Assembly (NCBI GenBank): GCA_041497955.1
Contig: JBGQHO010000007.1
Coordinates: forward strand, 15,691-79,690
DNA from: Terriglobia bacterium
GTDB lineage: Bacteria; Acidobacteriota; Terriglobia; Acidiferrales; UBA7541
Length of the DNA: 64,000 bases
Direction: 5' to 3'
Position numbers and translations under genes: made by a program. The notes beneath the pieces are model-generated. The model saw only the letters and a program-made list of their open reading frames with translations, made no database searches and was not told the DNA's origin. Positions 8,525 through 34,871 of this stretch are shown piece after piece; positions within the stretch are counted from its first letter, which is position 1, and every line of letters starts with the position of its first letter.

Positions 8525-8992
8525 CTACTGGGTGCACTTGGGCAGACAGTTCTCTCTTGCTGAGATTCTTTCTTCGATCTGTGTGAGAAGTTGATCCTCG
8601 TAGTTGATGTGCTTGCGGAGTAGCTCGATCAGTTCTCCGCCCCGCGCCACGACTTCGCCAGTTCGCAGGACGCTGGCAAAATCCAGCTCAGTGAGAAAAC
8701 TGCTCGTCAACCGAGCCAGCTCGTCGTGCTCTCCGCGGAGACGCCCCAGTGCGGAGCCGTCCAAATACATTTGGAAGGAAGACTCGAACTGCTGCTCCTC
8801 CCGATGGCAGTGCTCTTGTATCCTGCGAATCTGTTCCTTCAACTCGCGCAACTGCATGAGCCCTTTGCGGCGTTCCGCGTCGTCGGCACTTCCTACCCGC
8901 TGAAGAGCGGCCTCCCAGGCGTTAAGGGCCACGTGAATCTCATCATGCTCCCCGTGGAAGTACTCCAACTGCGTATGCAGATTCATGCTCAC
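8525..8992 (-). CDS. Hemerythrin HHE cation-binding domain protein
   Basis: 155 aa. Four His/Glu-bearing helices (HGEHDEIH, HCHREEQQF, GEHDEL, KHINYEDQLL) in hemerythrin-like spacing. Paralogous in pattern to 36861-37319. Confidence 0.55.
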   Translation of the reverse strand: MSMNLHTQLEYFHGEHDEIHVALNAWEAALQRVGSADDAERRKGLMQLRELKEQIRRIQEHCHREEQQFESSFQMYLDGSALGRLRGEHDELARLTSSFLTELDFASVLRTGEVVARGGELIELLRKHINYEDQLLTQIEERISARENCLPKCTQ

Positions 8993-9022
8993 CCATCCTT
9001 TGCGCGCTCCACATTCAGCGAC

Positions 9023-10561
9023 TCAGTCTTTCCGCTGGCGCAAGCGGGCCCGCAACGCGGCGTCAATCGAGCGCGCAGCTTTGCGGGCAGGCACCATGGC
9101 CGTGACGATCAAGTCCGCGCCGCGTACGCAATCGCCCGCCGCCCAGATTTCCTGTTCGCGGCTGGTCTGCCCATCCTCTTCCGTGCCCACCCAGATCGTG
9201 CCCCACTTCGTGGACTTCAAATTCTCGGCGCTTTGCGCGATTTCATCTTCCACGCTGTAGCCGATTGCCACCACGGCCGTATCGCACTCGAGAACGAAGT
9301 TCGACCCCTCGATGGGCACCGGGGTGCGGCGGCCCTTGGCGTCCGGCGCGCCCAGCTTCATGCGGATGCATTCGCACGCCATGACGTTTCCTTCCGCGTC
9401 GCCGATGAATTTCACGGGCAGCGTGAGCCACTCGAACTTGACACCTTCCTCACGCGCGTTGATACGTTCTTCGTAGCGCCCGGGCATCTCGGTTTCGCTG
9501 CGGCGATAGACGCACCAGACTTCGCCCTCGGTACACAGGCGCCGTGCCGTGCGCACGCAATCCATCGCCGTGTCGCCGCCGCCGACTACCACGGTGCGCC
9601 GGCCCACGTGCGGGCGCCCGCGCAGGTTCTCGGGGAGCAGCTCGTCCGGCAAGTTCCCGCGCACTAGATATTCGGTGGCGTTGTAGACGTTCTTTAGATC
9701 CTCGCCGGGGGTTTTCATGCGATTGCCGGCGCTGGCCCCGTGGCCCAGGAATACGGCGTCGAAGCCGTGCTTGCACAAGAGATCATCCGGGGAAAGATCC
9801 TTCCCGATGCGCACGTTGCAGCGGAACTCGACGCCCAGTTTCTCGAGCCAGCGGATTTTTTCCCAAACGATGCGCTTGTCGAGTTTGAATCCAGGAATAC
9901 CGTAGACGAGCAACCCCCCCGGACGCGGCCACGCCTCGAAGATCGTGACGGTGTGCCCGCGCTTGACGAGCTCTTCGGTCACCGCGAGTCCCGCCGGACC
10001 CGACCCCACCACAGCGACGTGCGTGCCGAGCGGCGGCGGCAGCGACGGCACAGGATAGCCGCCGAGATGGTCGCGGGTGTAGTCCACGCAGAACCGCTCC
10101 AGCTTGCCGATAGCTACCGGCAAGCTGTAGGTGCGGACAACGCACGCGCCCTCGCACTGTTTTTCCTGAGGGCAGAGCCGGCCGCAAATATCGGGCAGGT
10201 TCGAGGTCTCCATGAACTTCAGTGCCGCGGCGCGCACATCTCCTTGCTCCAGCATCCACAGCGCTGCCGGGATATCGTTGTGCGCCGGGCAGCCGAACGT
10301 GCAGGGGTGATGCTCGCACTGCAGGCAGCGGCCGGCTTCCAGCATTGCTTCGCGCAGCGAAAGCGCGAAGGAAACCTCATCGAAATTGTTCAGCCGCTTT
10401 TGGGGGTCTTGTTTGCGCGCCTTCACCGGCTCTTTGCGCAAGCGTTGCCGGCGGATCAGCGGTTGCGCCTCGGGAGCATCCGCGGACTCGACCGGCGGCT
10501 GCTCCGCGCCTTCCCAGGAATTAGCACGCATCAAGTCCGCCACTGCATCTTTGTCCTTCAT
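9023..10561 (-). CDS. GltD-family NAD(P)H-dependent FAD/Fe-S oxidoreductase (glutamate synthase small-subunit-like)
   Basis: N-terminal Cys clusters (CLQCEHHPCTFGCPAHNDIP, CGRLCPQEKQCEGAC). Two Rossmann motifs (VAVVGSGPAGL, VVVGGGDTAMDC). C-terminal IWAAGDCVRGADLIV. Start taken at Met37 (MKDKD), whose ATG overlaps the hemN stop (ATGA). Confidence 0.85.
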   Translation of the reverse strand: MKDKDAVADLMRANSWEGAEQPPVESADAPEAQPLIRRQRLRKEPVKARKQDPQKRLNNFDEVSFALSLREAMLEAGRCLQCEHHPCTFGCPAHNDIPAALWMLEQGDVRAAALKFMETSNLPDICGRLCPQEKQCEGACVVRTYSLPVAIGKLERFCVDYTRDHLGGYPVPSLPPPLGTHVAVVGSGPAGLAVTEELVKRGHTVTIFEAWPRPGGLLVYGIPGFKLDKRIVWEKIRWLEKLGVEFRCNVRIGKDLSPDDLLCKHGFDAVFLGHGASAGNRMKTPGEDLKNVYNATEYLVRGNLPDELLPENLRGRPHVGRRTVVVGGGDTAMDCVRTARRLCTEGEVWCVYRRSETEMPGRYEERINAREEGVKFEWLTLPVKFIGDAEGNVMACECIRMKLGAPDAKGRRTPVPIEGSNFVLECDTAVVAIGYSVEDEIAQSAENLKSTKWGTIWVGTEEDGQTSREQEIWAAGDCVRGADLIVTAMVPARKAARSIDAALRARLRQRKD

Positions 10562-12021
10562 AGCGTCTTTGAAAAGAGCGGGCGGCTCGCCAGTTTCTGC
10601 CGCTCGAGATAGGGGTCGAAAACCATCGCCACGTTGCGGATGAAAATCCGCCCCAGCGCCGTGACACAAATCTCCGATGGATTTATTCGCACCAGTCCGT
10701 CGGCGACGTACTCGCGCAAGCGCTCGAGTTCTGCGCCGAAGTATTCGTCAAAAACGATGCCCTGCTCGCGCTCGACCTCGGCCTTGGGAATCACCGTGTG
10801 GCAAAGCAACCGGCTGATCACAGAGCGACGGATGCGGTCGTCACGCGTCAGGCGATATCCGCGCATCGTGGCGATGCCGCGGCGCTCAACCTGCGCCTGA
10901 TAACCAGCCAGGTCTCGGTGGTTCTGCGCGTAGGTGTCGCCGACGCCGCTGATGGCGCTGACGCCCATGGCGTAGAGATCGGCGCCGGCTTTCGTCGTGT
11001 AGCCCTGAAAATTCCGGTGCAGCGTGCGGTTTCCCTGCGCAATAGCCAACTCATCCGTGGGACGCGCGAAGTGGTCCATGCCGATATAGAGGTAACCGGC
11101 CTCAACAAACTTCTCGAGGCCCGTCTGGAAGATTCGGAATTTCTCGATGCCTTCAGGCAGGTGCGTGGCGAACGAGCCCTGTTGCTTCTTGAGCCATGGC
11201 ACGTGCGCGTAGCTGAACATCGCCACGCGATCCGGCGCGAGTGAGAGCACCCGATCGACTGTCGCGGCGAAGCGCTCGGCGGTTTGATACGGCAGCCCGT
11301 AGATGAGGTCGGCGTTGATGCTCTCAAATCCAAGCGCGCGTGCCGCGAGAATCAGATCGCGCGTCTGCTCAAACGCCTGTACGCGGTGGACGGCGCGCTG
11401 CACCTCGGGATGGAAGTCCTGAATGCCCAGGCTCAGGCGGTTGAAGCCCAGGCGGCGCGCCGTCTCGACGTGCTCACGTGTAGTGACGCGCGGGTCCACT
11501 TCAATGCCGATCTCTGCGCCGGGAGCAATCGAAAAATGCTCACGCGCATAACCGAACAGATCCTCCATTTGCGCCGGGCTCAGGTACGTCGGCGTGCCGC
11601 CGCCCCAGTGAAACTGAATCACAGGGCGTTCGCGGGAAACGAACCGGCTGACATGAGCGATCTCCCGCTTCAGCGAGGCGAGGTACGGCAGCGCGATGGA
11701 CTTGTCTTTTTGGATGACAACGTTGCACGCGCAGAACAGGCAGAGGCTCTCGCAGAACGGAAGGTGCATGTAGAGAGAAACGGGCGTCGTTCTCTTGGCT
11801 TCACCGAAGGCTTGCTCAAGGTCGTCCGGCCCGAAGTCTTCTTGCCAAACAGGAGCGGTGGGGTAACTCGTGTAGCGCGGGCCAGGGCGGTTGTACTTAT
11901 TCAGGAACTCTTCGGTGACATTGAAGCGTTGGGGGCCGAATTCCAACGGGACGCCGGTGGCCGTCTTGGCGCCGCCTTCCCAATCTGGAACTGAAGACCC
12001 GGAACGCCCAGCCATCCGCAT
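10558..12021 (-). CDS. hemN: Oxygen-independent coproporphyrinogen III oxidase (radical SAM)
   Basis: GPRYTSYPTAP N-terminal motif, radical-SAM cluster CESLCLFCACN and GGGTPTYL. Full-length HemN size. Start chosen at Met11 (12021), which has a GAGGGG Shine-Dalgarno; Met13 is also possible. Confidence 0.9.
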   Translation of the reverse strand: MRMAGRSGSSVPDWEGGAKTATGVPLEFGPQRFNVTEEFLNKYNRPGPRYTSYPTAPVWQEDFGPDDLEQAFGEAKRTTPVSLYMHLPFCESLCLFCACNVVIQKDKSIALPYLASLKREIAHVSRFVSRERPVIQFHWGGGTPTYLSPAQMEDLFGYAREHFSIAPGAEIGIEVDPRVTTREHVETARRLGFNRLSLGIQDFHPEVQRAVHRVQAFEQTRDLILAARALGFESINADLIYGLPYQTAERFAATVDRVLSLAPDRVAMFSYAHVPWLKKQQGSFATHLPEGIEKFRIFQTGLEKFVEAGYLYIGMDHFARPTDELAIAQGNRTLHRNFQGYTTKAGADLYAMGVSAISGVGDTYAQNHRDLAGYQAQVERRGIATMRGYRLTRDDRIRRSVISRLLCHTVIPKAEVEREQGIVFDEYFGAELERLREYVADGLVRINPSEICVTALGRIFIRNVAMVFDPYLERQKLASRPLFSKTL

Positions 12022-12208
12022 GCCGAAGCCCCTCAAGCGTAAACGGAGCAAGAGCGGTGCCAGCCGAGCTGGCCTCGTTTTGCATGTAATTCCTTTTATT
12101 GCAATGATTTGAAAAGGCTCAGTGGCGCGGGTCTTCTGCCCTTCTGCGCGGCTTGGCTCAGTTGGAGCCGGCGGATGGGCCTGTTGCCCCAGTTTCCTTT
12201 GCCTCAGC

Positions 12209-14509
12209 CTAGGAGCTTTCCGGCGGCTGCTTACCTGGCCCGGAAGGCTTGGGCAGTGAGTCGGGGGCCGCGGGGTTTTTGGGGGCGTCTTGTGGCACGG
12301 GGCTGGCCTCGTCTTCCGAGGCAGGCTCCGCGCCAGCTTCCTCTACGTCCAACCCCGCAGTGCGGGAATCCTTCTGCTCGCGAACAAGCTGCACGTGATA
12401 CGCCGGGCGCGTGTGACGCAGGTGATCAGCCGAAGCCTTGCCGGTCAGCCAGGAAAGATCCATCGGGTAGACGTCGGGATCAAACATCACCACATAGAAG
12501 TGCCAGAGCAGAATGGAGAGCGTCGCCAGGATGGCTTCGTAGTAGTGGACGGCCGTAGCCGCATCCGCCACCCACTTCGGGAAGTGGCGCAGCGTGAAAT
12601 TGATGAACCACAGCAGGAAGCCCGAAAGGCCCATGACCACCGAGCCCCACACGAACGCCAGGTATTCCAACTTTTCGACGTAGTTGAACTTGCCGAAGGC
12701 CGGCGGTTCGGCCAAAAGACCCAGGTTGTAGCGCGCGGTGCCGAAAATGTCGAACACATCCTGAATCCGCGGCACCATCAACTGGAGAATCCTGCCGTCG
12801 CGCTGCGATGCCAGCAGATGAATGAAGTGATAGACCATCGAAGCAATCAGCACCACCGCCGCTGCGCGGTGCAACGTGCCGCGCAGCGCGAAGCGGCTTT
12901 CCCAATGCAGAAGCGGCTGAGCCCACCACGACTCCGGGAACTTCAGCGCAAACCCGGTGACCACGAGCACCGGGAAGCTCAGCATCACCAGCCAGTGCGC
13001 GATGCGGAAGTTCAGATTCATGCGCACGACTTGCTCGCCGGAATGGCTGCGCGGCCCGTTGCGGATGAGCTTTGCGAAAAAGTCCAGCCCATTGTGCAGG
13101 AGCATGAAGCCGAGAGTGAGCGGGATCAGCACCCAGTAGGTCACGCGGATCCACTTCACGACCGGATGCTCGCTCGCCGAGGCCGGGCGCACGTGAATCG
13201 CCCCGATGGCGAAGCTGGCGCCTGCGCCCGGATGACACGCGCCGCAGGTGCGCGCGAGGTTCGCAGCGTTCACCGTGGAACGCGGATCGTTGGACGGCAG
13301 GATGTTATGCACACCGTGGCACGAGGCGCAGTTGGCCACCGTCTGCGAGCCGGAACGCAGCGCCAGCCCGTGATAACTATCCGCGTACGAGGACACGCGG
13401 TCCGCGGGCAGGTTGTAGCGCTGCGCCAAGCGTTCGTCGGAATGGCAGCGGCCGCAGGTGACACTCGAGACGCGCGCGGGGTTCACCAGCGACTGCGCCT
13501 CGCTGGGCGCGAGGATTATGTGCTCGCCATGACAATCGGTGCAGACCGGCGCATCGCGCACGCCCTGCTTCACCGCCCGCCCGTGCACGCTTTCCTGATA
13601 CGCCTTCTTGATGTCGGTGTGGCACGTGCCGCAAGTTTCCGGAATGTTCCAGTGATTGATCTTTGCCCCAGGATCGCGCCCGGGAAGGATGCCGTGACTC
13701 CCGTGGCAATCCGAGCAGGAAGGAGCGGCCGGGTTCCCGGCAGCGACGGCGCGGCCGTGGACGCTACGCTGGTATGCCTCAACGGGATGAGCAAAAGGAA
13801 TATTGTGCCGCGCAAGAAATTCCGGATTCGCATGGCAGCTCCCGCACGTGGCGGGCAGGCGTTTCTTGGTGACGCGCGACGCTGGATCTCCGGCAGGCAG
13901 GATCTTGTGCACGGGCCCGTGGCACGACTGGCAACTCGCGCCTTCGAGGTCGCCACTTCTGCGCGCCGCGGCGTGGACGCTCTTCTCGAATTCGCGGACC
14001 TCGTCCCCGTGGCAGGCGGCGCACTGCACGGGCACGAGCGTCGCGCCGCGCTGTGCTTCGTGCGCAGAACCATGGCAGCTCACGCAAGCCTGCGTTCCTG
14101 TGCCGAGAGCCGCGTGGATGCTCTTGCCCGCGTCCGCGGCGGATTGGTCGTGGCACGTCCCGCAGCTCACCTTGGGCATGTGCTTCGGGTGCGGATACTC
14201 CTTCACGCCGACGTGACACGTGTCGCAGGTTAAAGCGCTGTGCGCACTGGCCGCATGCTTGGCCGGATCGACATAGATGCTGCGGCCCGACTCCGACTTC
14301 ATCCCCGCCTGGCCGTGACACGCCAGGCACTGCCCGTCCTGAGCCGGCCGCGGACGCGCAGCAACGCTGGCGGCGCACACCAACACGAGCAAGAGAGTGG
14401 CAGTAAGATCCGCCAAGGATGTGCTCAGCGACCGGGTTGTTCGACCGCGCGGATGGTGTCCCATCGGGCCGACCTTCTTCCGTTGCATGGCGCGGCGGCT
14501 ATTTGACAC
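12209..14509 (-). CDS. 13-heme c-type cytochrome fused to a C-terminal FdnI/HydC-type membrane cytochrome b domain (CbcL-like)
   Basis: 766 aa. Signal/anchor sequence, then 13 CxxCH motifs (CLACH, CDTCH, CGTCH, CVSCH, CAACH, CQSCH, CGSCH, CSDCH, CGTCH, CTDCH, CGRCH, CASCH, CGACH). The last ~300 aa has about 5 hydrophobic helices carrying conserved His (IAHWL, HRAAAVV, HFIHLL, VHYYE, LWHFY). Confidence 0.85.
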   Translation of the reverse strand: MSNSRRAMQRKKVGPMGHHPRGRTTRSLSTSLADLTATLLLVLVCAASVAARPRPAQDGQCLACHGQAGMKSESGRSIYVDPAKHAASAHSALTCDTCHVGVKEYPHPKHMPKVSCGTCHDQSAADAGKSIHAALGTGTQACVSCHGSAHEAQRGATLVPVQCAACHGDEVREFEKSVHAAARRSGDLEGASCQSCHGPVHKILPAGDPASRVTKKRLPATCGSCHANPEFLARHNIPFAHPVEAYQRSVHGRAVAAGNPAAPSCSDCHGSHGILPGRDPGAKINHWNIPETCGTCHTDIKKAYQESVHGRAVKQGVRDAPVCTDCHGEHIILAPSEAQSLVNPARVSSVTCGRCHSDERLAQRYNLPADRVSSYADSYHGLALRSGSQTVANCASCHGVHNILPSNDPRSTVNAANLARTCGACHPGAGASFAIGAIHVRPASASEHPVVKWIRVTYWVLIPLTLGFMLLHNGLDFFAKLIRNGPRSHSGEQVVRMNLNFRIAHWLVMLSFPVLVVTGFALKFPESWWAQPLLHWESRFALRGTLHRAAAVVLIASMVYHFIHLLASQRDGRILQLMVPRIQDVFDIFGTARYNLGLLAEPPAFGKFNYVEKLEYLAFVWGSVVMGLSGFLLWFINFTLRHFPKWVADAATAVHYYEAILATLSILLWHFYVVMFDPDVYPMDLSWLTGKASADHLRHTRPAYHVQLVREQKDSRTAGLDVEEAGAEPASEDEASPVPQDAPKNPAAPDSLPKPSGPGKQPPESS

Positions 14510-15944
14510 CCAGGTCTTTCAAGACTTTGGGGTCAGCTTCTTCCATCGCCAGGATGGTGTGGCACGCATTGCAATCCTGCGTGATCGAACGACCGTCTGA
14601 GCTGACGTGGCTTCCGTCGTGGCAACGGAAACAGCCGGGATAATCCTGGTGCCCGAGGTTATTCGGGTGAGTGCCCCACGTCAGGCGCATGGAGGGGAAT
14701 ACATTGCGCAGGTAGATGCCGGCTACTTGATCCGCCGCGGTCTGGACAAGCGAGCCGTGCCTGCGGAAGACGTCGGGATAGCTGGTGCGATAGAAGTCAT
14801 TAATCGTTGCAACGATCCGTTGGCGCGCCGTCTCGCGATCCGGATACTCGGTGCGCAAGACGTCCACCGCCTTTTTCTTGATGAAAGGAAGCTGCGGGCT
14901 GATGCGGCCCTCGGCCATTTCCTTGTCCACCGCAGGTTCCGGCAACTGGAAGGCGTGCGTGGGGCGATTGTGGCAGTCCATGCAGTCCATCAAGCGGTGC
15001 TCGCCGCGCGCGAGCTCTTCTGCCGCGGGTTTCACTTCCGTCGAGGCATACTCCACAGATTGGCCTTTATCGTCGGTGTAGGTCACCTTCGGGATGACCT
15101 GGCGGCCCCCGGTCGAGATGTAGTTGACCTGCAGGCCGTTCCCCAAATGCCGTCCATGGATGCCCACCGAGCCCTGCCAGGAGATCCCGCCGATCTTCAC
15201 GACGAGCACGGTGTACAGCGGCGTGTTCTTTTCGTCGTCGGAGAACTTCGTGCGCACAAGGAATTTGTCGCCGGTAAACTTCTGTGGCCAGTGGCATTGC
15301 TCACAGGTCTCCCGGGCCGGGCGCAGGTGCTCCACGGGCGAAGGAATTGGCCGCGAATACGTCTTGAAGGTAACTGCAAAAACCTGGCGGACGCCGGAAA
15401 GTTTGGACCGGACAAACCACGGCGCGCCGGGGCCAATGTGACACTGCACACAGCCGACGCGCTGGTGCGGCGAATTCTGGTACGCCGTGTACTCCGGGGC
15501 CATCACGCTGTGGCACGTCAGGCCGCAGAACTGCACCGAGTCCATGTACTCCACGCCGCGGTACGACGCCGTTCCCAGAATGGCCACATTCAATAAGGTC
15601 ATGCCTCCCACCCACGCGAATCCCCGGCGGACGAGCGGCCGACGCAAATCAATTTGCGGGTAAACCGAAGGCAGTTCACCCGCCCGGCGCAACTTGTGTC
15701 GCTGCCAGATGACCCCCGCCGGCATCAGCAAGAGCCCGAGGACAAACACTCCCGGCAAGACAAGGATAAATACGATGCCTGCATAGGGATGCACGGACCC
15801 GCCGCCGATAATCTCAAACAGCCAGAAGCCGATCAGCGTGATGGCCGAGCTAGTGGTCACCACCGCGCCAGTCAACGTGGCCGGGTTCTGACTCAGGTAA
15901 TATGCGGGCCGCAGCCAATAAGCGAGCCGTTCGGGGAGTCTCAT
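14499..15944 (-). CDS. Membrane-anchored NapC/NirT-type multiheme cytochrome c with 3 N-terminal TM helices (ImcH-like)
   Basis: 481 aa. Three N-terminal hydrophobic helices. NapC/NirT-like stretch FCGLTCHSVMAPEY...SPH..VGCVQCH. Five CxxCH (CVQCH, CEQCH, CMDCH, CFRCH, CNACH) plus one CX3CH (CGLTCH, nt 15510-15527). Overlaps the downstream gene by 11 nt. Confidence 0.8.
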   Translation of the reverse strand: MRLPERLAYWLRPAYYLSQNPATLTGAVVTTSSAITLIGFWLFEIIGGGSVHPYAGIVFILVLPGVFVLGLLLMPAGVIWQRHKLRRAGELPSVYPQIDLRRPLVRRGFAWVGGMTLLNVAILGTASYRGVEYMDSVQFCGLTCHSVMAPEYTAYQNSPHQRVGCVQCHIGPGAPWFVRSKLSGVRQVFAVTFKTYSRPIPSPVEHLRPARETCEQCHWPQKFTGDKFLVRTKFSDDEKNTPLYTVLVVKIGGISWQGSVGIHGRHLGNGLQVNYISTGGRQVIPKVTYTDDKGQSVEYASTEVKPAAEELARGEHRLMDCMDCHNRPTHAFQLPEPAVDKEMAEGRISPQLPFIKKKAVDVLRTEYPDRETARQRIVATINDFYRTSYPDVFRRHGSLVQTAADQVAGIYLRNVFPSMRLTWGTHPNNLGHQDYPGCFRCHDGSHVSSDGRSITQDCNACHTILAMEEADPKVLKDLGVK

Positions 15945-16012: not shown

Positions 16013-17281
16013 TCAGGGCGTCCGACGGTTGGTCCTCTTTCCCTCCAGGTCACGAATGAGCAACCAGAGTGCAAGGATCACGAAGGCAATCACAACCAGT
16101 GACAGCGCCAGGCCCTTGCGCCGGAAAGCGCGCTCTGCCAGGGCCTGCTGCCCCGCCAGGTTTGCCTGTTCGGCGAGCTTTTTCCCCGCCGCCGTGGTTT
16201 CCTCGATGTTTGGCACGTTCAACGCGTGCACATCCACGCGCGCCTTGATCAATTTCTCTCGCCCGCTGTAGAGCGTCACGCGGCCTTCGCCCACATCCAT
16301 GCCCGCGCGTTCGGCGCGCTCCAGAATCGCTGCGGCCTGCTGAAGCGAAGTGTCCAATCCCGTCAGCGCGGCGTGGGCCTGCTTGGCTGTTTTTCCTCCG
16401 GGGTCATCCTCGGAGTGGCATCGCAAGCAAAGAGATTCGTTGCCCGCGCGCAGCAGGGCATCGCTCGTGCGGCGCACAGCGTGATTACTGTGGCAGGTCA
16501 GGCAGGCGGCGATCTTGGCCTGCTGCCAGGGCTGTTTGTGCGGGCTCTGGTCGAACAGACGTTCCTGAAAGACGTGACAGGTGCCGCAGACGCGCTCGAT
16601 GGAACCGACTCCGGGCGGTGCGGCGCCGTGATTGCCGTGACAGGTCGCGCACGTGGGCGCCGACAAATCTCCCCCCTGAAGCTTTTCATTGTGCACGCTG
16701 GCCTGGTAGTTCTTCAGTTGGTCGGTCGGGATCTTGTACGGCTTCATGTATGCGGCATCGGCGTGACAGCGCCCACAGGTCTTAGGAATGTGCAGTGGAT
16801 GCACACTGGAAAGCGGGCTCGAAGCCGGGCGAATGTTGTGCGCGCTGTGGCAATCCATGCAGACGGCCACGCGCGTATCGCCGCCGCGCAGGCGCTTCCC
16901 GTGCACGCTGGTCCAATATTGCGCCAACTGATCGGTGCGCAGCGACGGGTTGTAGGCCCGCATGTAGGCGCCATCGGAATGGCAGCGGGCGCACAGCGTG
17001 GGGACTTCCGAGCGCTTCGGCGTGCCGCGAAACCCTTTCGCGCGGTTCATGGCCTTCGTGGGATCTTCCTCGTTGGGATTGCCGCCGTGACAATCGGCGC
17101 AATTTAGCCCGCGCGCCGCGTGCACGTCGTCGGCAAACAGCTTGGCGGGATCGCCGAGCTTCCCCTCAAACGCAGCGTGGCATTCGCGGCAGCGGTCTAC
17201 CGGCGGCTTATCCGCAGCCGCAACGGCCACTGCGGTCGCCAGAAGAACCAACGCCATGCCGAGCCATCGCTGCCGCATCAT
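16013..17281 (-). CDS. Nonaheme c-type cytochrome with C-terminal membrane anchor (cytochrome c subunit of the adjacent Rieske/cyt b complex)
   Basis: 422 aa. Signal peptide, then 9 CxxCH (CRECH, CADCH, CARCH, CMDCH, CGRCH, CATCH, CGTCH, CLTCH, CLRCH). Helical C-terminal region ends in a TM helix (LALSLVVIAFVILALWLLI). The start codon directly abuts the cytochrome b stop. Confidence 0.85.
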   Translation of the reverse strand: MMRQRWLGMALVLLATAVAVAAADKPPVDRCRECHAAFEGKLGDPAKLFADDVHAARGLNCADCHGGNPNEEDPTKAMNRAKGFRGTPKRSEVPTLCARCHSDGAYMRAYNPSLRTDQLAQYWTSVHGKRLRGGDTRVAVCMDCHSAHNIRPASSPLSSVHPLHIPKTCGRCHADAAYMKPYKIPTDQLKNYQASVHNEKLQGGDLSAPTCATCHGNHGAAPPGVGSIERVCGTCHVFQERLFDQSPHKQPWQQAKIAACLTCHSNHAVRRTSDALLRAGNESLCLRCHSEDDPGGKTAKQAHAALTGLDTSLQQAAAILERAERAGMDVGEGRVTLYSGREKLIKARVDVHALNVPNIEETTAAGKKLAEQANLAGQQALAERAFRRKGLALSLVVIAFVILALWLLIRDLEGKRTNRRTP

Positions 17282-18367
17282 TTAACCTCGCCAGGCCCAA
17301 ACACTCATCGCCACGATGTACAACACAGCTCCGACGCCGGCCCAGGCAAGCAGCCGCCCGGTGCGTCCATGTGGATTGCGGTCCAGAAACGGCACCATCA
17401 GCCACAACGCACCGGCCAGCCCGAACACAAGCAAGCCGACCTGTTCGCCTTCAATCCCCAACACGCGCCCGGGAATCACCTTCAGCGTCTGGAAGAGAAA
17501 CAGGAAATACCACTCCGGCCTGATGCCGGCCGGAGTCGCGGCAAACGGGTCGGCCTTGACGCCCAGGTCCCAGGGAAAGAGCGCCGCCAGCGCGGCCAGG
17601 ACGCCGAGAGCGAAATACCACCCCATCAGGTCGCGCAGCAGGAAGTTGGGAATGAAACTGTAGGAAGGCACCTTGCCGTCCGGGTGGGCGCGCTCCACCG
17701 AAGGCGGAACGCTCATGCCGAACTTCTGCACAAGAAAGAGGTGGGTCGCGACGACCACTGTGGTCAGGGCCGGGAAAACGGCCACGTGAAAGCCGAAGAA
17801 GCGTGTCAGCGTCGAGCCGGTCACGTCTTCCCCGCCGCGCAGGAATGTCAGCAGCCAAGTGCCGATCACGGGCACCGCGGCCATCATCTGCGTGCCGACC
17901 TTCGTGGCGAAGAACGCCAGCGTGTTCCAGGGCAGCAGGTACCCGCTGAATCCGAAGCCGAAAAACAGCAGTAACAGGATGCAGCCTGTCACCCACGTCA
18001 GTTCGCGCGGCTTGCGGTACGCCTTCAGGAAAAATGCGGAGAACATGTGCAGCATGGCCGTGAAGATGAGCAGATTGGCCGACCAAGCGTGGATGCCGCG
18101 CACCAGCCAGCCAAAACGCACCTTGGTCATGATGAACTGCACGCTCTCGAAGGCTTCTCCGGGCGAGGGCCGGTAGTAGAGCAGCAGCAGAATGCCGGTC
18201 ACCACCTGCACGATGAAGAGGAACAGCGTCATCCCGCCGAGGTAATACCAGAGCGTGTGCCGGTGCCGGGGCACCTGCTTGTGGGTCAGCCAGTCCAACC
18301 CACCCTTGCCGAAGCGTTCCTCGAGCCAGCCGCGGATCCGGGCAGCCGGGCTGTGCTTTGCGTCCAT
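17282..18367 (-). CDS. Cytochrome b of a Rieske/cytochrome b (bc1/b6f-type) complex, b6 and subunit-IV-like parts fused
   Basis: Start at Met46 of the ORF (MDAKHS), 2 nt after the Rieske stop. Typical cytochrome b sequence ([57 protein letters not shown]). Confidence 0.9.
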
Positions 18368-18369
18368 GG

Positions 18370-18834
18370 TCAAGCGCGCGACCCGCGCGAGACGACAATC
18401 TCCTTCCCGCGCACGTGAACTTGAAACTCCTCGAGCGGACGCGGTGGTGGCCCGCTGACGTTTCGCCCCTGCAGGTCGTACACGCCGTTGTGGCAGGCGC
18501 ACCAGATGTCGTGCTCGCCCGTTCGGTATTGCACCGTGCAGTTCAGATGGGTGCAGACCGCACTGAGCGCCCGATAGCTGCCGTCGGCCTGGCGGATCAG
18601 GATCCCCGGGCGGTTGCCAAAACGAAAGATTTTCGCGGAGTTCGGAGCCAGTTCATCGGCGCGCGCCGCCACCGCATCGGCATCGAGCTCTCCGGTGCGC
18701 GGGGGGAGAAGAAATTTGAGGATGGGGTACAGAACGGAAACGAGCGAAGCTGCAACCCCGGATCCGACCAGCAACTCAAGGACACGCCGGCGGGCCGCCT
18801 TGGGCGGCCCGCCGGCGTCCACATCACTGGACAC
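18370..18834 (-). CDS. Rieske [2Fe-2S] iron-sulfur subunit
   Basis: 154 aa. Arg-rich N-terminus with TM helix. Cluster-binding boxes CTHLNC and CACHNG. Confidence 0.9.
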
Positions 18835-18880: not shown

Positions 18881-19213
18881 CTACTTCTTTGCAAGGCTGC
18901 GAAGAAACGCGATGACGTTGGCGGCTTCCTCGTCGGTCAGCTTCACCGGCTTCATCTTGCCGTTGCCCTCGACGATGACCTTGTGGAGCTGTGCGTCACT
19001 CTTGGCCTGCACTTCTTTGGAGGCCAGGGGGCGCATCTCCACTTTGAACATCTTCGCGATCGCGTCTTTTCCTTCGCCACCCGGCCCATGGCACGTGGCG
19101 CACTTGCTGGCGAAAACCGCCTTGCCCTTCGCAGCGTCGCCGGCCGCCCAAACCAGCGCGGACACGGTAAGCACCACAGCCACGAGCGCCGCTATCTTCC
19201 ACCCTGCCTTCAT
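18881..19213 (-). CDS. Class I monoheme cytochrome c (c553/c6-like)
   Basis: 110 aa. Signal peptide, a single CATCHG motif, and a distal Met region (GNGKMKPV). Confidence 0.85.
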   Translation of the reverse strand: MKAGWKIAALVAVVLTVSALVWAAGDAAKGKAVFASKCATCHGPGGEGKDAIAKMFKVEMRPLASKEVQAKSDAQLHKVIVEGNGKMKPVKLTDEEAANVIAFLRSLAKK

Positions 19214-19282: not shown

Positions 19283-19735
19283 CTAGGTCCCCAGCGCCGC
19301 AAATACCAGGAAGCGCGGCTCCACTTGTACCGTGGCACGAAGCGAGTTGTTGATGAAACAGTTCTTCTCCGCCTTGGCGAGAACCTTCTGCGCCTTCTCG
19401 AGATCTTCGGCGGCAACCTCGATCTCCGGAACCACGGTAAGTGCAGTGAAACGATACCCCTCCCCGGGGACTTTTTCCAGCCGACCAAGTACCTTGCTGC
19501 GATAAGAAGTTACGGTTAGGCCGGAAATCTCGGCAATGGCAAAGAAGGTTGACATCAGGCAACTTCCCGCAGCCGCCACGAGCAGGTGTTCCGGCGTCCA
19601 CTTACCCACCTCCCCGGCGAATTCCGGCGGCGGAGCGACCTCGAGGACGGGACGCCCCTCTGCGTGAACCTGCCCGCTGCGCCGGTCACTCCACACAACG
19701 TCGACATCGTACAGGTAAGAGTTCTGCAGGCTCAC
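19283..19735 (-). CDS. OsmC/Ohr family peroxiredoxin-like protein
   Basis: 150 aa. OsmC-type pattern PEHLLVAAAGSCLMSTF ... AEKNCFI with the two conserved Cys. Confidence 0.8.
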   Translation of the reverse strand: MSLQNSYLYDVDVVWSDRRSGQVHAEGRPVLEVAPPPEFAGEVGKWTPEHLLVAAAGSCLMSTFFAIAEISGLTVTSYRSKVLGRLEKVPGEGYRFTALTVVPEIEVAAEDLEKAQKVLAKAEKNCFINNSLRATVQVEPRFLVFAALGT

Positions 19736-19935
19736 CTCTTCCTCCCAGTGGACGCGACCGTTCGACGGACCACGCGCCGCTTCTTATCCCGGTGATGGCC
19801 ATGCGGCATCACCTCTGCGCGCGCAGCTTTGACATGCGTCCAGCAATGGTGGCATTGAAAACGAGAGTCGGATTCAGCCAGCACGGCTTCCAGCGAAGAC
19901 AGCGGCTGGCCGCAGACGGTGCAGTGCGTAGTCAT
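19732..19935 (-). CDS. Small zinc-ribbon protein with basic tail (hypothetical)
   Basis: 67 aa. CTVCG...CHHC pair of CxxC knuckles and a Lys/Arg-rich C-terminus. 4-nt overlaps with both neighbours suggest real translation. Confidence 0.45.
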   Translation of the reverse strand: MTTHCTVCGQPLSSLEAVLAESDSRFQCHHCWTHVKAARAEVMPHGHHRDKKRRVVRRTVASTGRKR

Positions 19936-20336
19936 TTTCTAGCTCCCGCGGCGAAATAATCCTGCCGCTTTGATTCGAGTGCGCGGCTCACGATCCGCAT
20001 CAGTTCAGTTTCGTTTAGGGGGAGCGCCACGCAATCAAACGCTCCGCGGCGCAGAGCTTCGAGGTACAGAGGCACGTCGTCGGTGACGACCACGACCGGC
20101 AGGGCCGTCGCGAGTCCCCGAAGGCGAGTGAGTAGCTCCAGCGATGGAAGAAAGCCGCGACACAACCGGGCAACGATCAGGTCGGCTTCGCCGCTGCGGG
20201 CCGCCGCATAAAGTTCACCCGCCGAAAGCCCCTCGCGGACCTGCATTCCCCGCCGCCCCAAGCTATCGGCAAGGACTTCGAGCTCACACCCAGGCTCTCC
20301 CCAGAGAAGCACGCGTTTGCCGATTACTTCAGACAT
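19932..20336 (-). CDS. Receiver-like (pseudo-receiver) domain protein lacking the phospho-acceptor residues
   Basis: CheY-like alpha/beta periodicity. The DD pair is replaced (LLWGEPG), the phospho-acceptor Asp position reads ADLIVARL, and the conserved Lys is replaced (FDCVALP). Start taken at Met13 (ATG 20336). Confidence 0.6.
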   Translation of the reverse strand: MSEVIGKRVLLWGEPGCELEVLADSLGRRGMQVREGLSAGELYAAARSGEADLIVARLCRGFLPSLELLTRLRGLATALPVVVVTDDVPLYLEALRRGAFDCVALPLNETELMRIVSRALESKRQDYFAAGARK

Positions 20337-20613
20337 AAGCACCCCCTTGGCCGCCCCAAGGGCAGAGTCCACTTACCATTCAGCAAGTTCCGCGCCGCGC
20401 GCCGCCTTGGATGAACCCGGAGCCAAGCCATTAATTTTCTATAACTTCGTAGCCCCACGCGCTCGCAACGCCTCGGCCCAATTGGAGGGAAAGCGTTGAA
20501 ATTCGCCTCGTCCTGCGCTCCTGTGCGTGATATGCCTCAAATCAGGCAGCTTTCGAAGGACCAGTCCACCTTACAAACTACTGAAAACATTATCACTGGC
20601 TACGTCTGAGTTT

Positions 20614-22146: not shown

Positions 22147-22151
22147 GAGCC

Positions 22152-23576: not shown

Positions 23577-23805
23577 GGTGCTGTCCGCATTTCTCCGCCG
23601 CGCCGGCTTGGAGAAAGGGGTAGGAGATGGCTAGAGGGCGAGGACGAGCACCGGCCCGTAACTCAACCGACTCCTGATCCGAATCACACTTGAAATTGAA
23701 TTCCAAATTCGTACAATGGGCACGCCGGGGAAATAGCCGGGTGCCCACCCTTCCTGCTTGCGGATTTCTGCAAGCCAACTGGCCGCCCCACTTGAGGAGT
23801 GTCCT

Positions 23806-24753
23806 ATGAAGAGATCACGAAAACTGGTGCTGTTCGCGCTCGGGCTTGTCCTCGCCCTGGTGCTCTTCTGCCTGGCGCCCGCGGGCGCCGCCGATCGCGC
23901 GCAGGAAAAGAAACCCGCCGCCCCGGCCAAAGATTCGTCCCAATACATCGGAGCGGATACCTGCAAGCAGTGCCACGAGGATGTGTACAAGAAATTCGAG
24001 ACCACGCCGCATTGGAAGACGACGCTTGGAGCCATCCGCGGCATCGAGGCGCACGGCTGCGAATCGTGTCACGGTCCGGGCGCGGATCACGTCAGTGGCG
24101 GCGACAAGAGCAAAATCTTCACCTTCAAGGGAGCGACCGCGAAGCAGATCAGCGCGCGCTGCCTGGAGTGCCACGAGTACGGGGAGGAACACAGCAACTA
24201 TGCCCGCTCGGTCCACAAGATCAACGACGTGAGCTGCATCGATTGCCACTCGGTTCATAAGGCCAAGGAGTCGCAGTTCCTGCTGGCGAAAGCGCAACCT
24301 CAGCTCTGCTACTCCTGTCACCAGGACATCAGGCCCGAGTTCAATAAGCCCTTCCGCCACCGCGTGAACGAAAGCCTGGTGAAGTGCACCGATTGCCATA
24401 ACCAGCATGGCGGCTACATGACCAAACAGTTGCGAGCCACCGCCGCGCAGGACGTAGTGTGCTTCAAGTGCCACGCAGACAAGGCCGGGCCCTTTGTGTA
24501 TGAACATCATGCGGTCAAAGGTGAGGGGTGCGTGGCCTGCCACATGCCGCACGGCTCGTCGAACCCGCGCCTCCTGAAACGAGCCCAGGTCAACCTGCTC
24601 TGCCTGGAGTGCCACACGCCGACCGGCGGACCATCAGACGCTGTACCGCCGGGAACGCCCTCGTTCCACAACCAGGCGCAGAAGTATCAGGCTTGCACGA
24701 TGTGCCACGTGCAGATCCATGGGTCCAACTTGGACAGAGTCTTCTTCAAGTGA
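23806..24753 (+). CDS. Periplasmic decaheme c-type cytochrome, DmsE/MtrA/PioA/MtoA family
   Basis: 315 aa from the ATG preceded by GAGGAG. Signal peptide, then 10 CxxCH (CKQCH, CESCH, CLECH, CIDCH, CYSCH, CTDCH, CFKCH, CVACH, CLECH, CTMCH). C-terminal CH.QIHGSN ending and about 330-aa size are typical of the family. Confidence 0.85.
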   Translation: MKRSRKLVLFALGLVLALVLFCLAPAGAADRAQEKKPAAPAKDSSQYIGADTCKQCHEDVYKKFETTPHWKTTLGAIRGIEAHGCESCHGPGADHVSGGDKSKIFTFKGATAKQISARCLECHEYGEEHSNYARSVHKINDVSCIDCHSVHKAKESQFLLAKAQPQLCYSCHQDIRPEFNKPFRHRVNESLVKCTDCHNQHGGYMTKQLRATAAQDVVCFKCHADKAGPFVYEHHAVKGEGCVACHMPHGSSNPRLLKRAQVNLLCLECHTPTGGPSDAVPPGTPSFHNQAQKYQACTMCHVQIHGSNLDRVFFK

Positions 24754-24853: not shown

Positions 24854-27361
24854 ATGAAACCGACTCGCTTCGCCCTGAACTTCAGCGCTCTTGCCCTGGT
24901 TCTGCTGCTTTGCATGAGCTTCCCCGCCATGGCCCAGGAATCGGAGAAAGCGCCTGAGGGCATCAACTCTGGAAATTACAACATCAAGCAAACGGTGGAG
25001 CTTGGCGGGCGCATTATTCCAGATTCTGACTTCCGAGACACCCGCGGGACCCGCGAGTTGTTCAACACCTTCGTGAACCTGCGGAGCGGGGCACGGCTGC
25101 TGGACTACACGCTGGAGATGCGCTCGCTGAACCACGAAGGTTGGCTGTTCGACAGCCTCTACTACAGCAATTTCGGTTACGGCGGCGACCCGAACAACGT
25201 CTCGCGGCTGCGGGTGTACAAGAACAAGTGGTATAGCTTCAGCGGCACGTTCCGCCGTGACTACAGCTTCTGGGACTACAACCTGCTAGCCAACCCGTTG
25301 AACCCGAGCACCCCGGTGGCAAACGCTCCGGCGGGTTTTTCGCCGACCATATTGTTTTCGCCCCATGCGCAGGCGCTGGTGCGGCGGATGAGCGATTACA
25401 ATCTCACCTTCCTGCCGCAGTCGCGCGTGCGTCTTCGCCTGGGGTACAGCCGCAACGTCCAGGAAGGACCGTCGCTCAGCACCTTCCACGAAGGGACCGA
25501 CGTGTTGTTCTTCCAGGACTGGAAGACGACCGTCAATTCTTACCAGATTGGTGTGGACTTCAAATGGCTGCCCCGCACCAACATCAGCTACGACCAGTTC
25601 TTCCACTATTTCAAGGGAGACACTTCCTGGGTGGACCGGAGCCAGACCTTCGCGCTTTCCAACGGCGTCCCAGTGGACATCGGACTCCCCATCAACACCG
25701 CCGCGGGCCAGCCGTGTGCCCAGCCTTTCAATCCGTCCACTGCACAACCGACAGCGCCTGCGGGGACCGTCAACGCCACCTGCAACGCCTACCTGGGTTA
25801 TACGCGCCAAGCGCCTACTCGCACGAACTCTCCCACAGAGCAACTGAGTTTCCAATCCAATTACTTCAAGAATCTCGACCTTTCCGGGCGGTTTGTTTAC
25901 AGCTCGTCTGACAATACGGCGTTTGGCAACGAAGCTCTAAACGCCCTGATTACACGCACGAGAACGCTCGTGCGCAACGAAACCGGGCCGGTTTCGGGGC
26001 GTCGCGTCTCGGTTTCGGCAGACTTCGGCATCACCGTGCACGTCACCGACAAGTTGCGCGTCATGGACATGTTCCGCTTCGCCAATTTCCGACTCCCCAT
26101 GCAGTGGCTTTTTACGGAGTGCTCGTTCTTCGCTGCCGGCAATCCTGCTTCTATGCTGCTGCCCCCCACGGTATTCACTGCGACGGCTCCTCTGCCGGCT
26201 ACCTGTGCAGCCCCAGCCAATGGTGCCGCGGGAACACCGACACACAGTACGTCCTCACCCCCTGACGTTGAGTTGCGGGTCTCCAGCCGATTCTTCAAGC
26301 AGGACATCAAGAACAACCTGTTTGAGGTGGAATACGATTTCACCCGGCGCTTCGGCGCTCGGGTGGGCTACCGCTTTCGGCACCGCACGATCGCCGATGC
26401 CATCTCCGAATCAGGAACGTATGTCTTCTTTCCCAGCTTACAAAACGGGCGTACTCCCGAACCGCCCCTCAACGTGACCGAGAGCGGCGCATCGAACACT
26501 TGTCCGGTGGCCAACAACCGGTCCGATAACACGTGCCTGCTCACCGCCGAGTTGAGTGACTCAGGCAGTACGGAGATCAACGAGCACTCGGGTCTGTTCG
26601 GGATCTGGGCGCGGCCCACGGATGCGCTGCGCGTGAGCTTTGACCTCGAGCTGATGTCGGCCGATAACACATTCACGCGCGTTAGTCCGCGGCAGTTGCA
26701 GCACTACAAACTGCGCGCTAGCTACAAACCGACCCCGTGGATGGGCTTCGCAGGGACAGTGAACATCCTCGAAAACCGCAACAACGTTTTCCAGGTCAAC
26801 AACCTGCAACACAACCGCCTGTACGGGTTCAGCGCCGCCTTCGAACCCAACGAGCGAATCAGCTTCGACTTCGGCTACGACTACAACAACGTGTTCTCTA
26901 CTTCGCTCATCTGCTACCCGGTTACGCAGCCGGCGCCGTCCACCCTGCCCGCGTGCGTCGATGCGACCCTCGCGCCCATCCCCGGCTTGGTTGCGAACAC
27001 GTCCTTCTACAAGAACAAGGCGAACTTCTTTTACTTCGACGTGTCGTGGCGGCCGGTGAAGCGGCTCCGCACTTACGGCGGCTACTACCTTACCAGCACT
27101 TCCGGGAGCACCCTCATCATCGCTGGGCCGCAGGGAACGACCGGGGTGATCCCGAATCCGCCGACAGGCCCGCTGGCGTACAACTTCCACAAGCCCTACG
27201 CCGGCGTGACGTTTGACCTGTACAAGGGCCTGAGCTGGAAGGGGGAGTGGAACTATTACGGGTACAACGAGAAGGAGTCGGCCTTGCCGCTGGTGGACCC
27301 AACAGGCCCCCGGGACTTCCGCGGAAACATTGTGACGCTGGCGGTGCGCTACGCCTTCTGA
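24854..27361 (+). CDS. Large outer-membrane beta-barrel protein, MtrB/PioB-like partner of the decaheme cytochrome
   Basis: 835 aa from the ATG preceded by GGGAG. Signal peptide MKPTRFALNFSALALVLLLCMSFPAMA. Alternating hydrophobic, Tyr/Gly/Asn-rich beta-strand pattern throughout, with C-terminal ...LAVRYAF. Lies 100 nt downstream of the decaheme gene. Family assignment is by context and composition only. Confidence 0.65.
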   Translation: MKPTRFALNFSALALVLLLCMSFPAMAQESEKAPEGINSGNYNIKQTVELGGRIIPDSDFRDTRGTRELFNTFVNLRSGARLLDYTLEMRSLNHEGWLFDSLYYSNFGYGGDPNNVSRLRVYKNKWYSFSGTFRRDYSFWDYNLLANPLNPSTPVANAPAGFSPTILFSPHAQALVRRMSDYNLTFLPQSRVRLRLGYSRNVQEGPSLSTFHEGTDVLFFQDWKTTVNSYQIGVDFKWLPRTNISYDQFFHYFKGDTSWVDRSQTFALSNGVPVDIGLPINTAAGQPCAQPFNPSTAQPTAPAGTVNATCNAYLGYTRQAPTRTNSPTEQLSFQSNYFKNLDLSGRFVYSSSDNTAFGNEALNALITRTRTLVRNETGPVSGRRVSVSADFGITVHVTDKLRVMDMFRFANFRLPMQWLFTECSFFAAGNPASMLLPPTVFTATAPLPATCAAPANGAAGTPTHSTSSPPDVELRVSSRFFKQDIKNNLFEVEYDFTRRFGARVGYRFRHRTIADAISESGTYVFFPSLQNGRTPEPPLNVTESGASNTCPVANNRSDNTCLLTAELSDSGSTEINEHSGLFGIWARPTDALRVSFDLELMSADNTFTRVSPRQLQHYKLRASYKPTPWMGFAGTVNILENRNNVFQVNNLQHNRLYGFSAAFEPNERISFDFGYDYNNVFSTSLICYPVTQPAPSTLPACVDATLAPIPGLVANTSFYKNKANFFYFDVSWRPVKRLRTYGGYYLTSTSGSTLIIAGPQGTTGVIPNPPTGPLAYNFHKPYAGVTFDLYKGLSWKGEWNYYGYNEKESALPLVDPTGPRDFRGNIVTLAVRYAF

Positions 27362-27381: not shown

Positions 27382-27412
27382 AGGGGCCGACGCGATTACT
27401 CGGTCGGCCCCT
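27382..27412. terminator. Candidate bidirectional terminator hairpin between convergent genes
   Basis: 10-bp stem AGGGGCCGAC / GTCGGCCCCT with an 11-nt loop, 20 nt after the barrel-gene stop. It overlaps the last codons of the receiver gene on the other strand. No U-tract. Confidence 0.3.
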
Positions 27413-34478: not shown

Positions 34479-34871
34479 AACTCCCTCCATTGTTAAGAGT
34501 TCCGGGCGGGGCACGCGCGGAAGACCCCTGTCGGGAAAGCCCGTTTGGGCGATATTCCCCGACCCCGAGGGGCATATAACGCTGCAAAACGCATCACGAT
34601 GCGAAGGTCGCCAAGCCAATTGCTTCGCTGCCGAAAATGGACCGGTTGCTGAGCGAGATCTCCGCCGTCAAGTCTTGAGCGAGGAGCCGCAAGGGCCGCG
34701 AAAAGGCTCACGGCTTGGGGAAAATGGCTCAGCGACGCCGTTCCAGCCCGGCCCAGCGGACAGAGTGGCCGCCTAAGGTGCGGCGGTACAACGGTTTGCG
34801 GCAGGGGCGTGATTTTGAGCTTTGGCAAGGGTCGTGCCCCTAAGGAGGGGTGGTTAGCATTTTGAGAGGGT

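Follow-up and report, generated by a model that had tools for sequence, protein, structure and literature searches.

The proteins of the CbcL/MtrH/MtoC family join a multihaem c-type half and a dihaem cytochrome b half in one polypeptide. In the survey of Zhong & Shi (2018, PMC6295460) they span 15 phyla, range from 416 to 1034 residues with 3-23 CX2CH motifs, share 28.6-100% identity and mostly have six transmembrane (TM) helices, the five exceptions having 5 or 4. For Geobacter sulfurreducens CbcL (GSU0274, 619 residues), Table S2 of the same source places CxxCH motifs at residues 34, 57, 82, 105, 129, 158, 186, 229 and 257 and TM helices at 285, 351, 399, 477, 511 and 589, and within the Geobacter/Desulfuromonas CbcL clade the identity is at least ~57%. 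According to a proposed model (10.1101/2023.05.03.539133; 10.1101/2022.08.31.506072), CbcL oxidises quinol on the negative (N) side of the membrane and ImcH on the positive (P) side, CbcL being needed for acceptors below about -0.1 V and being inactivated at high potential. We describe here a gene of this type, called cbcL-like in the following, which lies at 12209..14464 on the (-) strand of a stretch of 64,000 nucleotides of the Terriglobia bacterium contig JBGQHO010000007.1 (the window, to which all coordinates refer). Its 751-aa product, read from ATG 14464, combines a 13-haem cytochrome c with an FdnI-type dihaem cytochrome b and, in our judgement, probably works in the inner membrane as a bc-type menaquinol:cytochrome c oxidoreductase, as a member of the CbcL/MtrH/MtoC family.

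The fused gene product and its multihaem domain

The longest open reading frame (ORF) at this place, 12209-14509 (-), encodes 766 residues from a GTG start at 14509, and its numbering is kept here for all residues, so that the ATG at 14464 corresponds to M16. That ATG is the start chosen by the JGI, NCBI and Logan gene calls, and 13 contigs, from assemblies of JGI, NCBI (GCA_041496005.1) and Logan, carry the identical 751-aa product. By hydropathy, the N-terminal segment (aa 16-52, 14353..14464, (-) strand) is a signal peptide or anchor, with a positively charged n-region and the hydrophobic stretch LADLTATLLLVLVCAASVA, the signal-like hydrophobic segment being at aa 32-50; homologues have a short signal peptide immediately ahead of their first CxxCH motif. 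An antisense ORF of 647 aa, 12290-14233 (+), is taken as a high-GC shadow ORF.

The periplasmic multihaem c domain (aa 61-426, 13232..14329, (-) strand) matches the Pfam families Cytochrome_C7, Cytochrom_c3_2 and Paired_CXXCH_1. It contains all of the 13 CxxCH motifs that an earlier, sequence-only reading of this DNA had counted in the N-terminal part, at aa 61, 95, 116, 142, 163, 193, 222, 265, 293, 323, 352, 394 and 422, and none lies outside it in the whole 766-aa ORF. By a rough estimate, the number of such motifs expected by chance in a protein of this size is far below one. Exactly 13 motifs are present in 114 of the 120 best homologues, and 15 further histidines of the periplasmic part are invariant or nearly invariant across homologues, a number that would suffice for the distal haem ligands.

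Two tandem 4-haem modules of ~130 residues each (aa 159-292 and 289-421, 13247..14035, (-) strand), with a CxxCH spacing of 30-29-43-28, are 36% identical over 135 aa (E 1e-32, pairwise BLASTP), and repeats of 2- and 4-haem modules make up the haem array. Its last five motifs are spaced 30-29-42-28, as compared with 29-28-43-28 in the published positions of GSU0274, and in both proteins a TM helix comes next. Because of the tandem modules and of the GSU0274-like spacing, the 13 haems are accounted for by the spacing pattern of the 9-haem CbcL with a single 4-haem module added. In comparisons with the Protein Data Bank (PDB), Foldseek gave no significant match for the c domain, the b domain alone being matched, and phmmer aligned the c domain weakly with the sequences of 28pb_A and 6i5b_A.

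When 5.8 billion protein clusters were searched, at least 7,986 of the 8,000 scored candidates matched at E ≤ 1e-5. All of the top 120, with lengths of 660-758 aa, combine PF01292 with multihaem c families. Thus, a frameshift or an assembly artefact joining two genes, which had been named as a possible undoing of the single-chain polypeptide, is ruled out, because all of these 120 homologues have the fusion and it recurs in assemblies made independently. The architecture is also shared by the relatives that HMMER retrieved in an exhaustive comparison with 1.84 billion cluster representatives, 6,218 of them at E ≤ 1e-3 and 1,145 at E ≤ 1e-30. Among the complete proteins in the top 150 representatives the haem counts range from 3 to 22, with 11 as the commonest (57 proteins) and 13 in 8 of them, and no Geobacter-type 9-haem, 619-aa protein is among these 150. 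The 'expanded' haem wire of the sequence-only reading is therefore nothing out of the ordinary, the relatives having 11 haems most often and the published family (PMC6295460) already reaching from 3 to 23.

In a distribution scan with one genome per GTDB species, at least 321 genomes were found to encode a relative, and locus comparisons were made on the best 80 of these loci. They are mostly from Acidobacteriota, namely Terriglobia (including Ca. Sulfotelmatobacter and Ca. Acidoferrum), Vicinamibacteria, Holophagae/Geothrix and Thermoanaerobaculia, with a few from NC10, KSB1, Bacteroidota, Ignavibacteriota, Omnitrophota and Binatia. Among the Terriglobia loci nearest to the window the 13-haem form prevails, and 11-haem forms belong to the remaining classes and to another Terriglobia clade.

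The membrane domain and family placement

Five hydrophobic helices follow the haem domain, at approximately aa 453-478, 499-521, 549-567, 618-640 and 658-676, as judged from hydropathy and from the helices of an AlphaFold2 model built from 53 homologues (mean predicted local distance difference test score, pLDDT, 75). The first is the linker helix TM0 (aa 449-483, 13061..13165, (-) strand; model, hydropathy and conservation), which leads the chain out of the periplasm to the cytoplasmic side and contains a conserved M-x-x-H472-N-x-L-D motif. It is the helix that topology requires between a periplasmic domain and an FdnI bundle with a cytoplasmic N-terminus, and clusters of basic residues in the TM0-TMI loop, in the TMII-TMIII loop and in the tail are consistent with its orientation. 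The other four helices make up the FdnI/HydC-type dihaem cytochrome b domain (aa 492-703, 12401..13036, (-) strand), which is supported by PF01292, TIGR01583, phmmer and Foldseek.

The C-terminal tail with the stop codon (aa 704-766, 12209..12400, (-) strand) is of low complexity, rich in Pro and Glu and predicted to be cytoplasmic, with pLDDT values below 50; no hydrophobic segment was found in aa 704-766, and hence no sixth TM helix. The b domain of ~300 residues and about five TM helices that had been read from the sequence thus needs trimming: the five helices stand, four of them in the dihaem b bundle, but the last ~65 residues belong to the low-confidence tail outside the domain. A hydrophilic tail of 40-110 aa without a sixth helix is found in essentially all complete genes among the 80 loci. 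A sixth helix at the extreme C-terminus was seen in five of the cluster representatives (P0134, P0221, P0234, P0240 and P0261).

Residues 498-676 match PF01292 (Ni_hydr_CYTB, prokaryotic cytochrome b561) with 45.6 bits as compared with a gathering cut-off of 30.1. In the phmmer comparison with PDB sequences, aa 492-703 aligned with E. coli FdnI (1kqf_C), which was also the sole significant match of the model in the Foldseek search of the PDB (E 8.5e-5, probability 1.00, target TM-score 0.71). In the phmmer alignment H505, H547, H655 and H670 stand opposite FdnI H18, H57, H155 and H169. Of these, H18 and H169 are the ligands of the cytoplasmic-side haem and H57 and H155 those of the periplasmic-side haem in the formate dehydrogenase-N structure (Jormakka et al. 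2002). The corresponding pairs of the window protein are H505/H670 for the cytoplasmic-side haem and H547/H655 for the periplasmic-side haem. In an alignment of 135 diverse relatives, each the representative of one 50%-identity cluster, the four residues are present in 132 (H505), 135 (H547), 134 (H655) and 131 (H670) sequences, so that the histidine pairs pointed out initially hold both in the comparison with FdnI and across the relatives.

The loop of the cytoplasmic menaquinone site of FdnI (G107-K114, with N110, Q113 and K114) aligns with G606-K613. In this putative quinone-site loop the position of Q113 is occupied by a glutamate, E612, which is found in 114 of the 135 relatives, and K613 is found in 130; the amphipathic segment after TM IV also aligns with its FdnI counterpart. 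The likeness to FdnI (1KQF chain C) therefore comprises the four-helix dihaem b fold, the four histidine ligands and the quinone-site loop. Unlike the window protein, however, FdnI is a separate subunit that is fed by FdnGH, reduces menaquinone and has neither a c-haem domain nor a linker helix. Three conserved residues are absent from FdnI: H472 of TM0 (in 109 of 135), H561 of TM II, 14 residues past H547 (in 124 of 135), both at cytoplasmic-side membrane depth, and E658, three residues past the periplasmic-side ligand H655 (in 130 of 135). A further site for a cofactor, a quinone or protons may lie at these positions.

Many homologues are labelled 'formate dehydrogenase gamma subunit' by JGI, and sub-threshold matches to TIGR01583 (formate dehydrogenase γ) and to TIGR02125 (hydrogenase cytochrome b), both over the PF01292 stretch, were indeed obtained. 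That the protein is actually a formate dehydrogenase γ subunit or a hydrogenase cytochrome b, or else a product of frameshift or misassembly, is nonetheless scarcely credible. The NCBIfam score of 49.2 bits lies far under the equivalog cut-off of 115.85, no FdnG/FdnH or hydrogenase genes are adjacent, and genes for molybdopterin or iron-sulfur (FeS) subunits are missing nearby. With its scores sub-threshold and its partner genes lacking, the formate dehydrogenase γ annotation was rejected; as to an artefactual fusion, the extra linker helix gives the chain a consistent topology, which speaks against it.

The protein is better compared with the CbcL/MtrH/MtoC family. It is collinear over the c domain, TM0 and the b domain with the six-TM representatives P0234 and P0261, one of them with 11 and the other with 19 haems, at 32-33% identity (E 5e-90 and 6e-107). 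That P0234 and P0261 correspond to listed family members was deduced from motif tables, not from accession numbers. P0234 fits the Marinifilaceae 932-aa type of the published tables by its length of 932 aa, its haem spacing and its last haem positions, and P0261 fits them by haem spacing alone, the types matched being the Marinifilaceae 932-aa type and the 11-haem proteins of Deltaproteobacteria and Verrucomicrobia. Because of the collinear identity with these two proteins, the window protein is placed, on the strength of sequence comparison, in the CbcL/MtrH/MtoC family, as part of a predicted five-TM subclade with 11 or 13 haems in which a hydrophilic cytoplasmic tail replaces the sixth helix. 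The multihaem N-terminal half, the dihaem b half and the full-length homology are all there, and six TM helices, which the protein does not have, are typical of the family but not strictly defining.

CbcL in the strict sense, with nine haems and ~615-620 aa, is another matter, the present protein having 13 haems and 751 aa. Like GSU0274 it is a single chain in which a linker TM helix connects the periplasmic multihaem c domain with a dihaem b domain of HydC/FdnI type, and the CbcL-like c/b fusion recognised in the sequence-only reading is confirmed to this extent. It differs in having 13 instead of 9 CxxCH motifs, and five instead of six TM helices past the haem domain, the hydrophilic cytoplasmic tail standing in the place of the sixth. 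With the MtoC and MtrH members it has in common the conserved set of membrane histidines, a variable number of the same haem modules and a frequent clustering with mtrA/mtoA-type decahaem and β-barrel genes. Geobacter CbcBA, by its description, also combines dihaem b and multihaem c modules in a quinol oxidase for low-potential acceptors, but, unlike the window protein, it consists of two polypeptides, and its 7-haem c subunit has a C-terminal anchor helix of its own.

In the survey (PMC6295460) the family members mostly have six TM helices and 9, 11, 19-20 or 23 haems, with no 13-haem entry in two-thirds of the family table, and only 2 members are from Acidobacteria, in contrast to the very abundant acidobacterial subclade observed here. 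The gene is real and well conserved, and its 13 haems are unremarkable. Its family, one of respiratory quinol oxidases, had been catalogued before and is very widespread among the Acidobacteria of soil.

Pairing with an ImcH-like gene

ImcH proteins are defined by three N-terminal TM helices, an adjoining atypical CX3CH motif and 5-9 CX2CH motifs, and in the published family the identity to Geobacter ImcH is 31.5-49% or more, with E127, K173 and Y188 conserved (PMC6295460). ImcH homologues have been known in Acidobacteria since 2014. The gene directly upstream of the cbcL-like gene (14499..15944, (-) strand) encodes 481 aa with a CX3CH motif (CGLTCH) at aa 140 and CxxCH motifs at 165, 214, 321, 438 and 458. 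Of its three N-terminal TM helices, those at about 24-46 and 56-74 pass the hydropathy threshold, and the third, at about 108-127, was read from the sequence and aligns with the NrfH helix. PF03264 (NapC/NirT) is matched with 39.4 bits as compared with a cut-off of 24.1, and NrfH (2j7a_C) aligns with aa 112-219, which comprise the third helix and the first haems (E 1.7e-4). The motif positions run parallel to those of the Koribacter ImcH homologue Acid345_2712 (134, 158, 207, 315, 432, 452 and 491 in Table S3 of PMC6295460), minus its last haem.

Like Geobacter ImcH (GSU3259), the protein has three N-terminal TM helices, a CX3CH motif right past the third of them and NapC/NirT/NrfH homology around haem 1; unlike it, it has six haem motifs (the CX3CH and five CxxCH) instead of seven. 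At the level of family architecture the designation of this gene as ImcH-like, which goes back to the sequence-only reading, is thus supported.

A same-strand imcH-like gene accompanies the cbcL-like gene in 58 of the 80 loci, with the order imcH -> cbcL-like in 34 (the clade of the window) and cbcL-like -> imcH in 24 (a more distant clade). The ImcH-like proteins of the first clade have six haem motifs and ~482 aa and are without the C-terminal seventh haem, and those of the second have seven motifs, as in Geobacter ImcH, and ~507 aa. When the 64 loci with at least 2.5 kb on both sides are taken into account, the two genes lie within 600 nt of each other in 39 and within 3.5 kb in 49. An insertion of ~2.9 kb that encodes another multihaem cytochrome separates them in loci L002, L021, L023, L025, L026 and L027.

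The pairing of imcH-like and cbcL-like genes is conserved in most related Acidobacteriota genomes, and the two genes are probably co-transcribed; a promoter and terminator scan of 8-21 kb gave counts at chance level and was of no help with the operon boundaries. Proximity of imcH and cbcL has precedent in Desulfuromonadales and relatives, with consecutive locus tags in Syntrophus sp. GWC2_56_31 (A2X92_08560 and A2X92_08565; PMC6295460) and with DSOUD_0207 and DSOUD_0214 in D. soudanensis. In G. sulfurreducens an imcH homologue is likewise present in the genome; in the window the cbcL-like gene directly adjoins it. A literature search did not find the acidobacterial imcH/cbcL-like pairing described, which is not proof of absence.

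An overlap of 11 nt between the two genes, from which their co-translation had been proposed, is an artefact of the start codon of the longest ORF: it is present only with the GTG start at 14509, and from ATG 14464 the gene starts 34 nt past the imcH-like stop. In related loci with the gene order of the window the candidate starts lie 10-100 nt beyond that stop. The translational coupling is an artefact as well, because it was deduced from the overlap. In eight species with the cbcL-like -> imcH order (loci L048, L065, L066, L069, L070, L071, L074 and L080) the longest imcH-like ORF overlaps the cbcL-like stop by exactly 11 nt, the figure that had been noted in the window for the other order. 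The accompanying notion that Geobacter regulates its two quinol oxidases separately does not agree with 10.1101/2022.08.31.506072, where CbcL is described as constitutive and redox-gated at the protein level.

Electron transfer and the surrounding cytochrome cluster

By analogy with FdnI and with the Geobacter CbcL model, menaquinol would be oxidised at the cytoplasmic face with release of protons to the cytoplasm, and the two b haems would pass the electrons across the membrane to the 13-haem wire, along which they would reach periplasmic carriers. The electron step would be aided by the membrane potential and would not contribute to the proton motive force, and for these reasons the enzyme would suit low-potential acceptors, with the ImcH-like partner oxidising quinol on the periplasmic side in an electroneutral manner. 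Plausible acceptors for a Terriglobia-type host are Fe(III), humics or organic matter of peat, both the acceptor and the outward flow of the electrons being inferred.

Some points weigh against assigning such a menaquinol-oxidising role. Support for the protein and for its Acidobacteriota homologues is wholly computational, and GSU0274 was compared only through its published motif and TM positions. The protein is without the sixth TM helix of CbcL, and the residues H472, H561 and E658, being without FdnI counterpart, could belong to a different or additional quinone, proton or haem site. Furthermore, MtoC-type relatives are thought to reduce quinone during Fe(II) oxidation, and the direction cannot be told from sequence (PMC6295460).

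Electron flow of this MtoC type would start from extracellular Fe(II) or reduced humics and lead through an MtrA-like/β-barrel conduit and the 13-haem wire to the b haems, with menaquinone being reduced at the cytoplasmic face. Consistent with it are the membership of MtoC of Fe(II) oxidisers in a family where, according to PMC6295460, no sequence feature separates the two directions, the closeness of the b domain to FdnI, a quinone reductase, and the location of an MtrA/MtoA-family decahaem cytochrome and a barrel nearby. However, the cbcL-like gene is paired with imcH-like genes, and the only role suggested up to now for ImcH homologues is the oxidation of quinol (same source); in addition, an inward transfer of electrons from modest-potential donors would have to work against the membrane potential and should be energetically unfavourable. 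The glutamate that replaces FdnI Q113 in most relatives fits proton abstraction from quinol, without being decisive. By taking these points together, we regard the inward direction as unlikely and keep menaquinol oxidation as the preferred function.

Further upstream, on the (-) strand, a nine-haem cytochrome c that has a signal peptide and is anchored by a TM segment at its C-terminus (16013..17281) is preceded by the cytochrome b (b6 fused to subunit IV) of a Rieske/cytochrome b complex (17282..18367, likely start ATG 18367; PF00033 with 177 bits, PF00032; best NCBIfam matches b6 and ExtP), by a Rieske 2Fe-2S subunit (18370..18834; PF00355) and by a monohaem class I cytochrome c (18881..19213; PF13442, PF00034), which is the first gene of the co-directional block. 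Three different quinol-reactive modules line up in this one block, and the Rieske, cytochrome b and 9-haem genes precede the pair in the window and in about 10 of the 80 loci.

On the (+) strand, ~9 kb from the cbcL-like gene, lie the genes of an MtrA/DmsE-family decahaem cytochrome c (23758..24753, 331 aa; TIGR03508 with 264 bits as compared with a cut-off of 192) and of a putative outer-membrane β-barrel of ~835 aa (24854..27361). The decahaem cytochrome would serve the section of the electron route between periplasm and outer membrane. The β-barrel is so designated because it has a signal peptide, matches no Pfam family and ends with ...AVRYAF, a C-terminus typical of outer-membrane β-barrels. 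In about 18 of the 80 loci a decahaem/barrel pair lies no more than 8 kb away from the cbcL-like gene, the usual gene order being decahaem, barrel, monohaem c, imcH-like, cbcL-like, unlike what the 2018 survey (PMC6295460) reports, with no mtrAB beside imcH. With menaquinol oxidation as the function, the ImcH-like/CbcL-like pair, the Rieske/cytochrome b/9-haem complex and the decahaem/β-barrel pair could plausibly form, by analogy, a complete route from the quinone pool to an extracellular acceptor.

The gene order also brings up the question of whether the ImcH-like and CbcL-like proteins, instead of being parallel alternatives, make up a single obligate machine, perhaps with the Rieske/cytochrome b/9-haem complex as a further part. 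Such a machine would act as a redox loop or as a Q-cycle-like device with a quinone site at each face of the membrane. In distant clades and in several phyla the two genes stand side by side, in one order or the other; extra conserved polar residues are located close to either membrane face, with E658 near the periplasmic-side haem and H472 and H561 at cytoplasmic-side depth; and the Rieske/cytochrome b/multihaem module joins the pair in some of the loci, as said above. However, CbcL and ImcH of Geobacter function independently, each supporting respiration in its own potential window, and about one quarter of the loci with full flanks, as in Holophagae, Thermoanaerobaculia and KSB1, are without an adjacent imcH-like gene. 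Physical contact between the two proteins would be a supposition, and we consider such a machine quite improbable.

The same low expectation applies to a wider proposal, namely that Acidobacteriota and several other phyla share an obligate, co-inherited pair of ImcH-like and five-TM CbcL-like proteins, often with an MtrA-like decahaem cytochrome and a novel β-barrel, which would work as one machine with quinone sites on both faces, as a Rieske-independent redox loop or a potential-adaptive gearbox. If an obligate two-face machine did exist, H472, H561 and E658 would point to a further cofactor or quinone site, one that FdnI does not have.

Genes of haem and cytochrome biogenesis concentrate around the cluster: ResB and CcsA of system II cytochrome c maturation are encoded upstream on the other strand (20527-23576 (+)), a HemN-type coproporphyrinogen oxidase directly after the cbcL-like gene (10558-12051 (-)) and glutamyl-tRNA reductase at 33060-34619 (-). 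Past HemN, on the same strand, 8525-10669 (-) encodes a GltD-like NAD(P)H oxidoreductase (Fer4_20, Pyr_redox_2) and a hemerythrin-domain protein. At the head of the operon are an OsmC-like gene (19283-19735 (-)) and a receiver-like small ORF (19932-20372 (-)). The cytochrome island is flanked by regulators, namely a response regulator (27396-27908 (-)), a histidine kinase with a protoglobin domain (27821-29110 (-)) and a sigma-54-dependent response regulator (30327-31787 (+)).

Beyond the family assignment, the most useful by-product of the analysis is the conserved acidobacterial imcH-like/cbcL-like pairing, often found with the MtrA-like/barrel pair. How Acidobacteriota, which dominate many soils and peats, respire without oxygen is poorly understood. 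Conserved porin-cytochrome clusters of Acidobacteriota from peat are the subject of a 2026 preprint, which describes their outer-membrane and periplasmic parts only, inner-membrane quinol oxidases being unmentioned. The pair, conserved as it is across hundreds of acidobacterial genomes, offers a testable inner-membrane entry point for the extracellular electron transfer clusters of peat.

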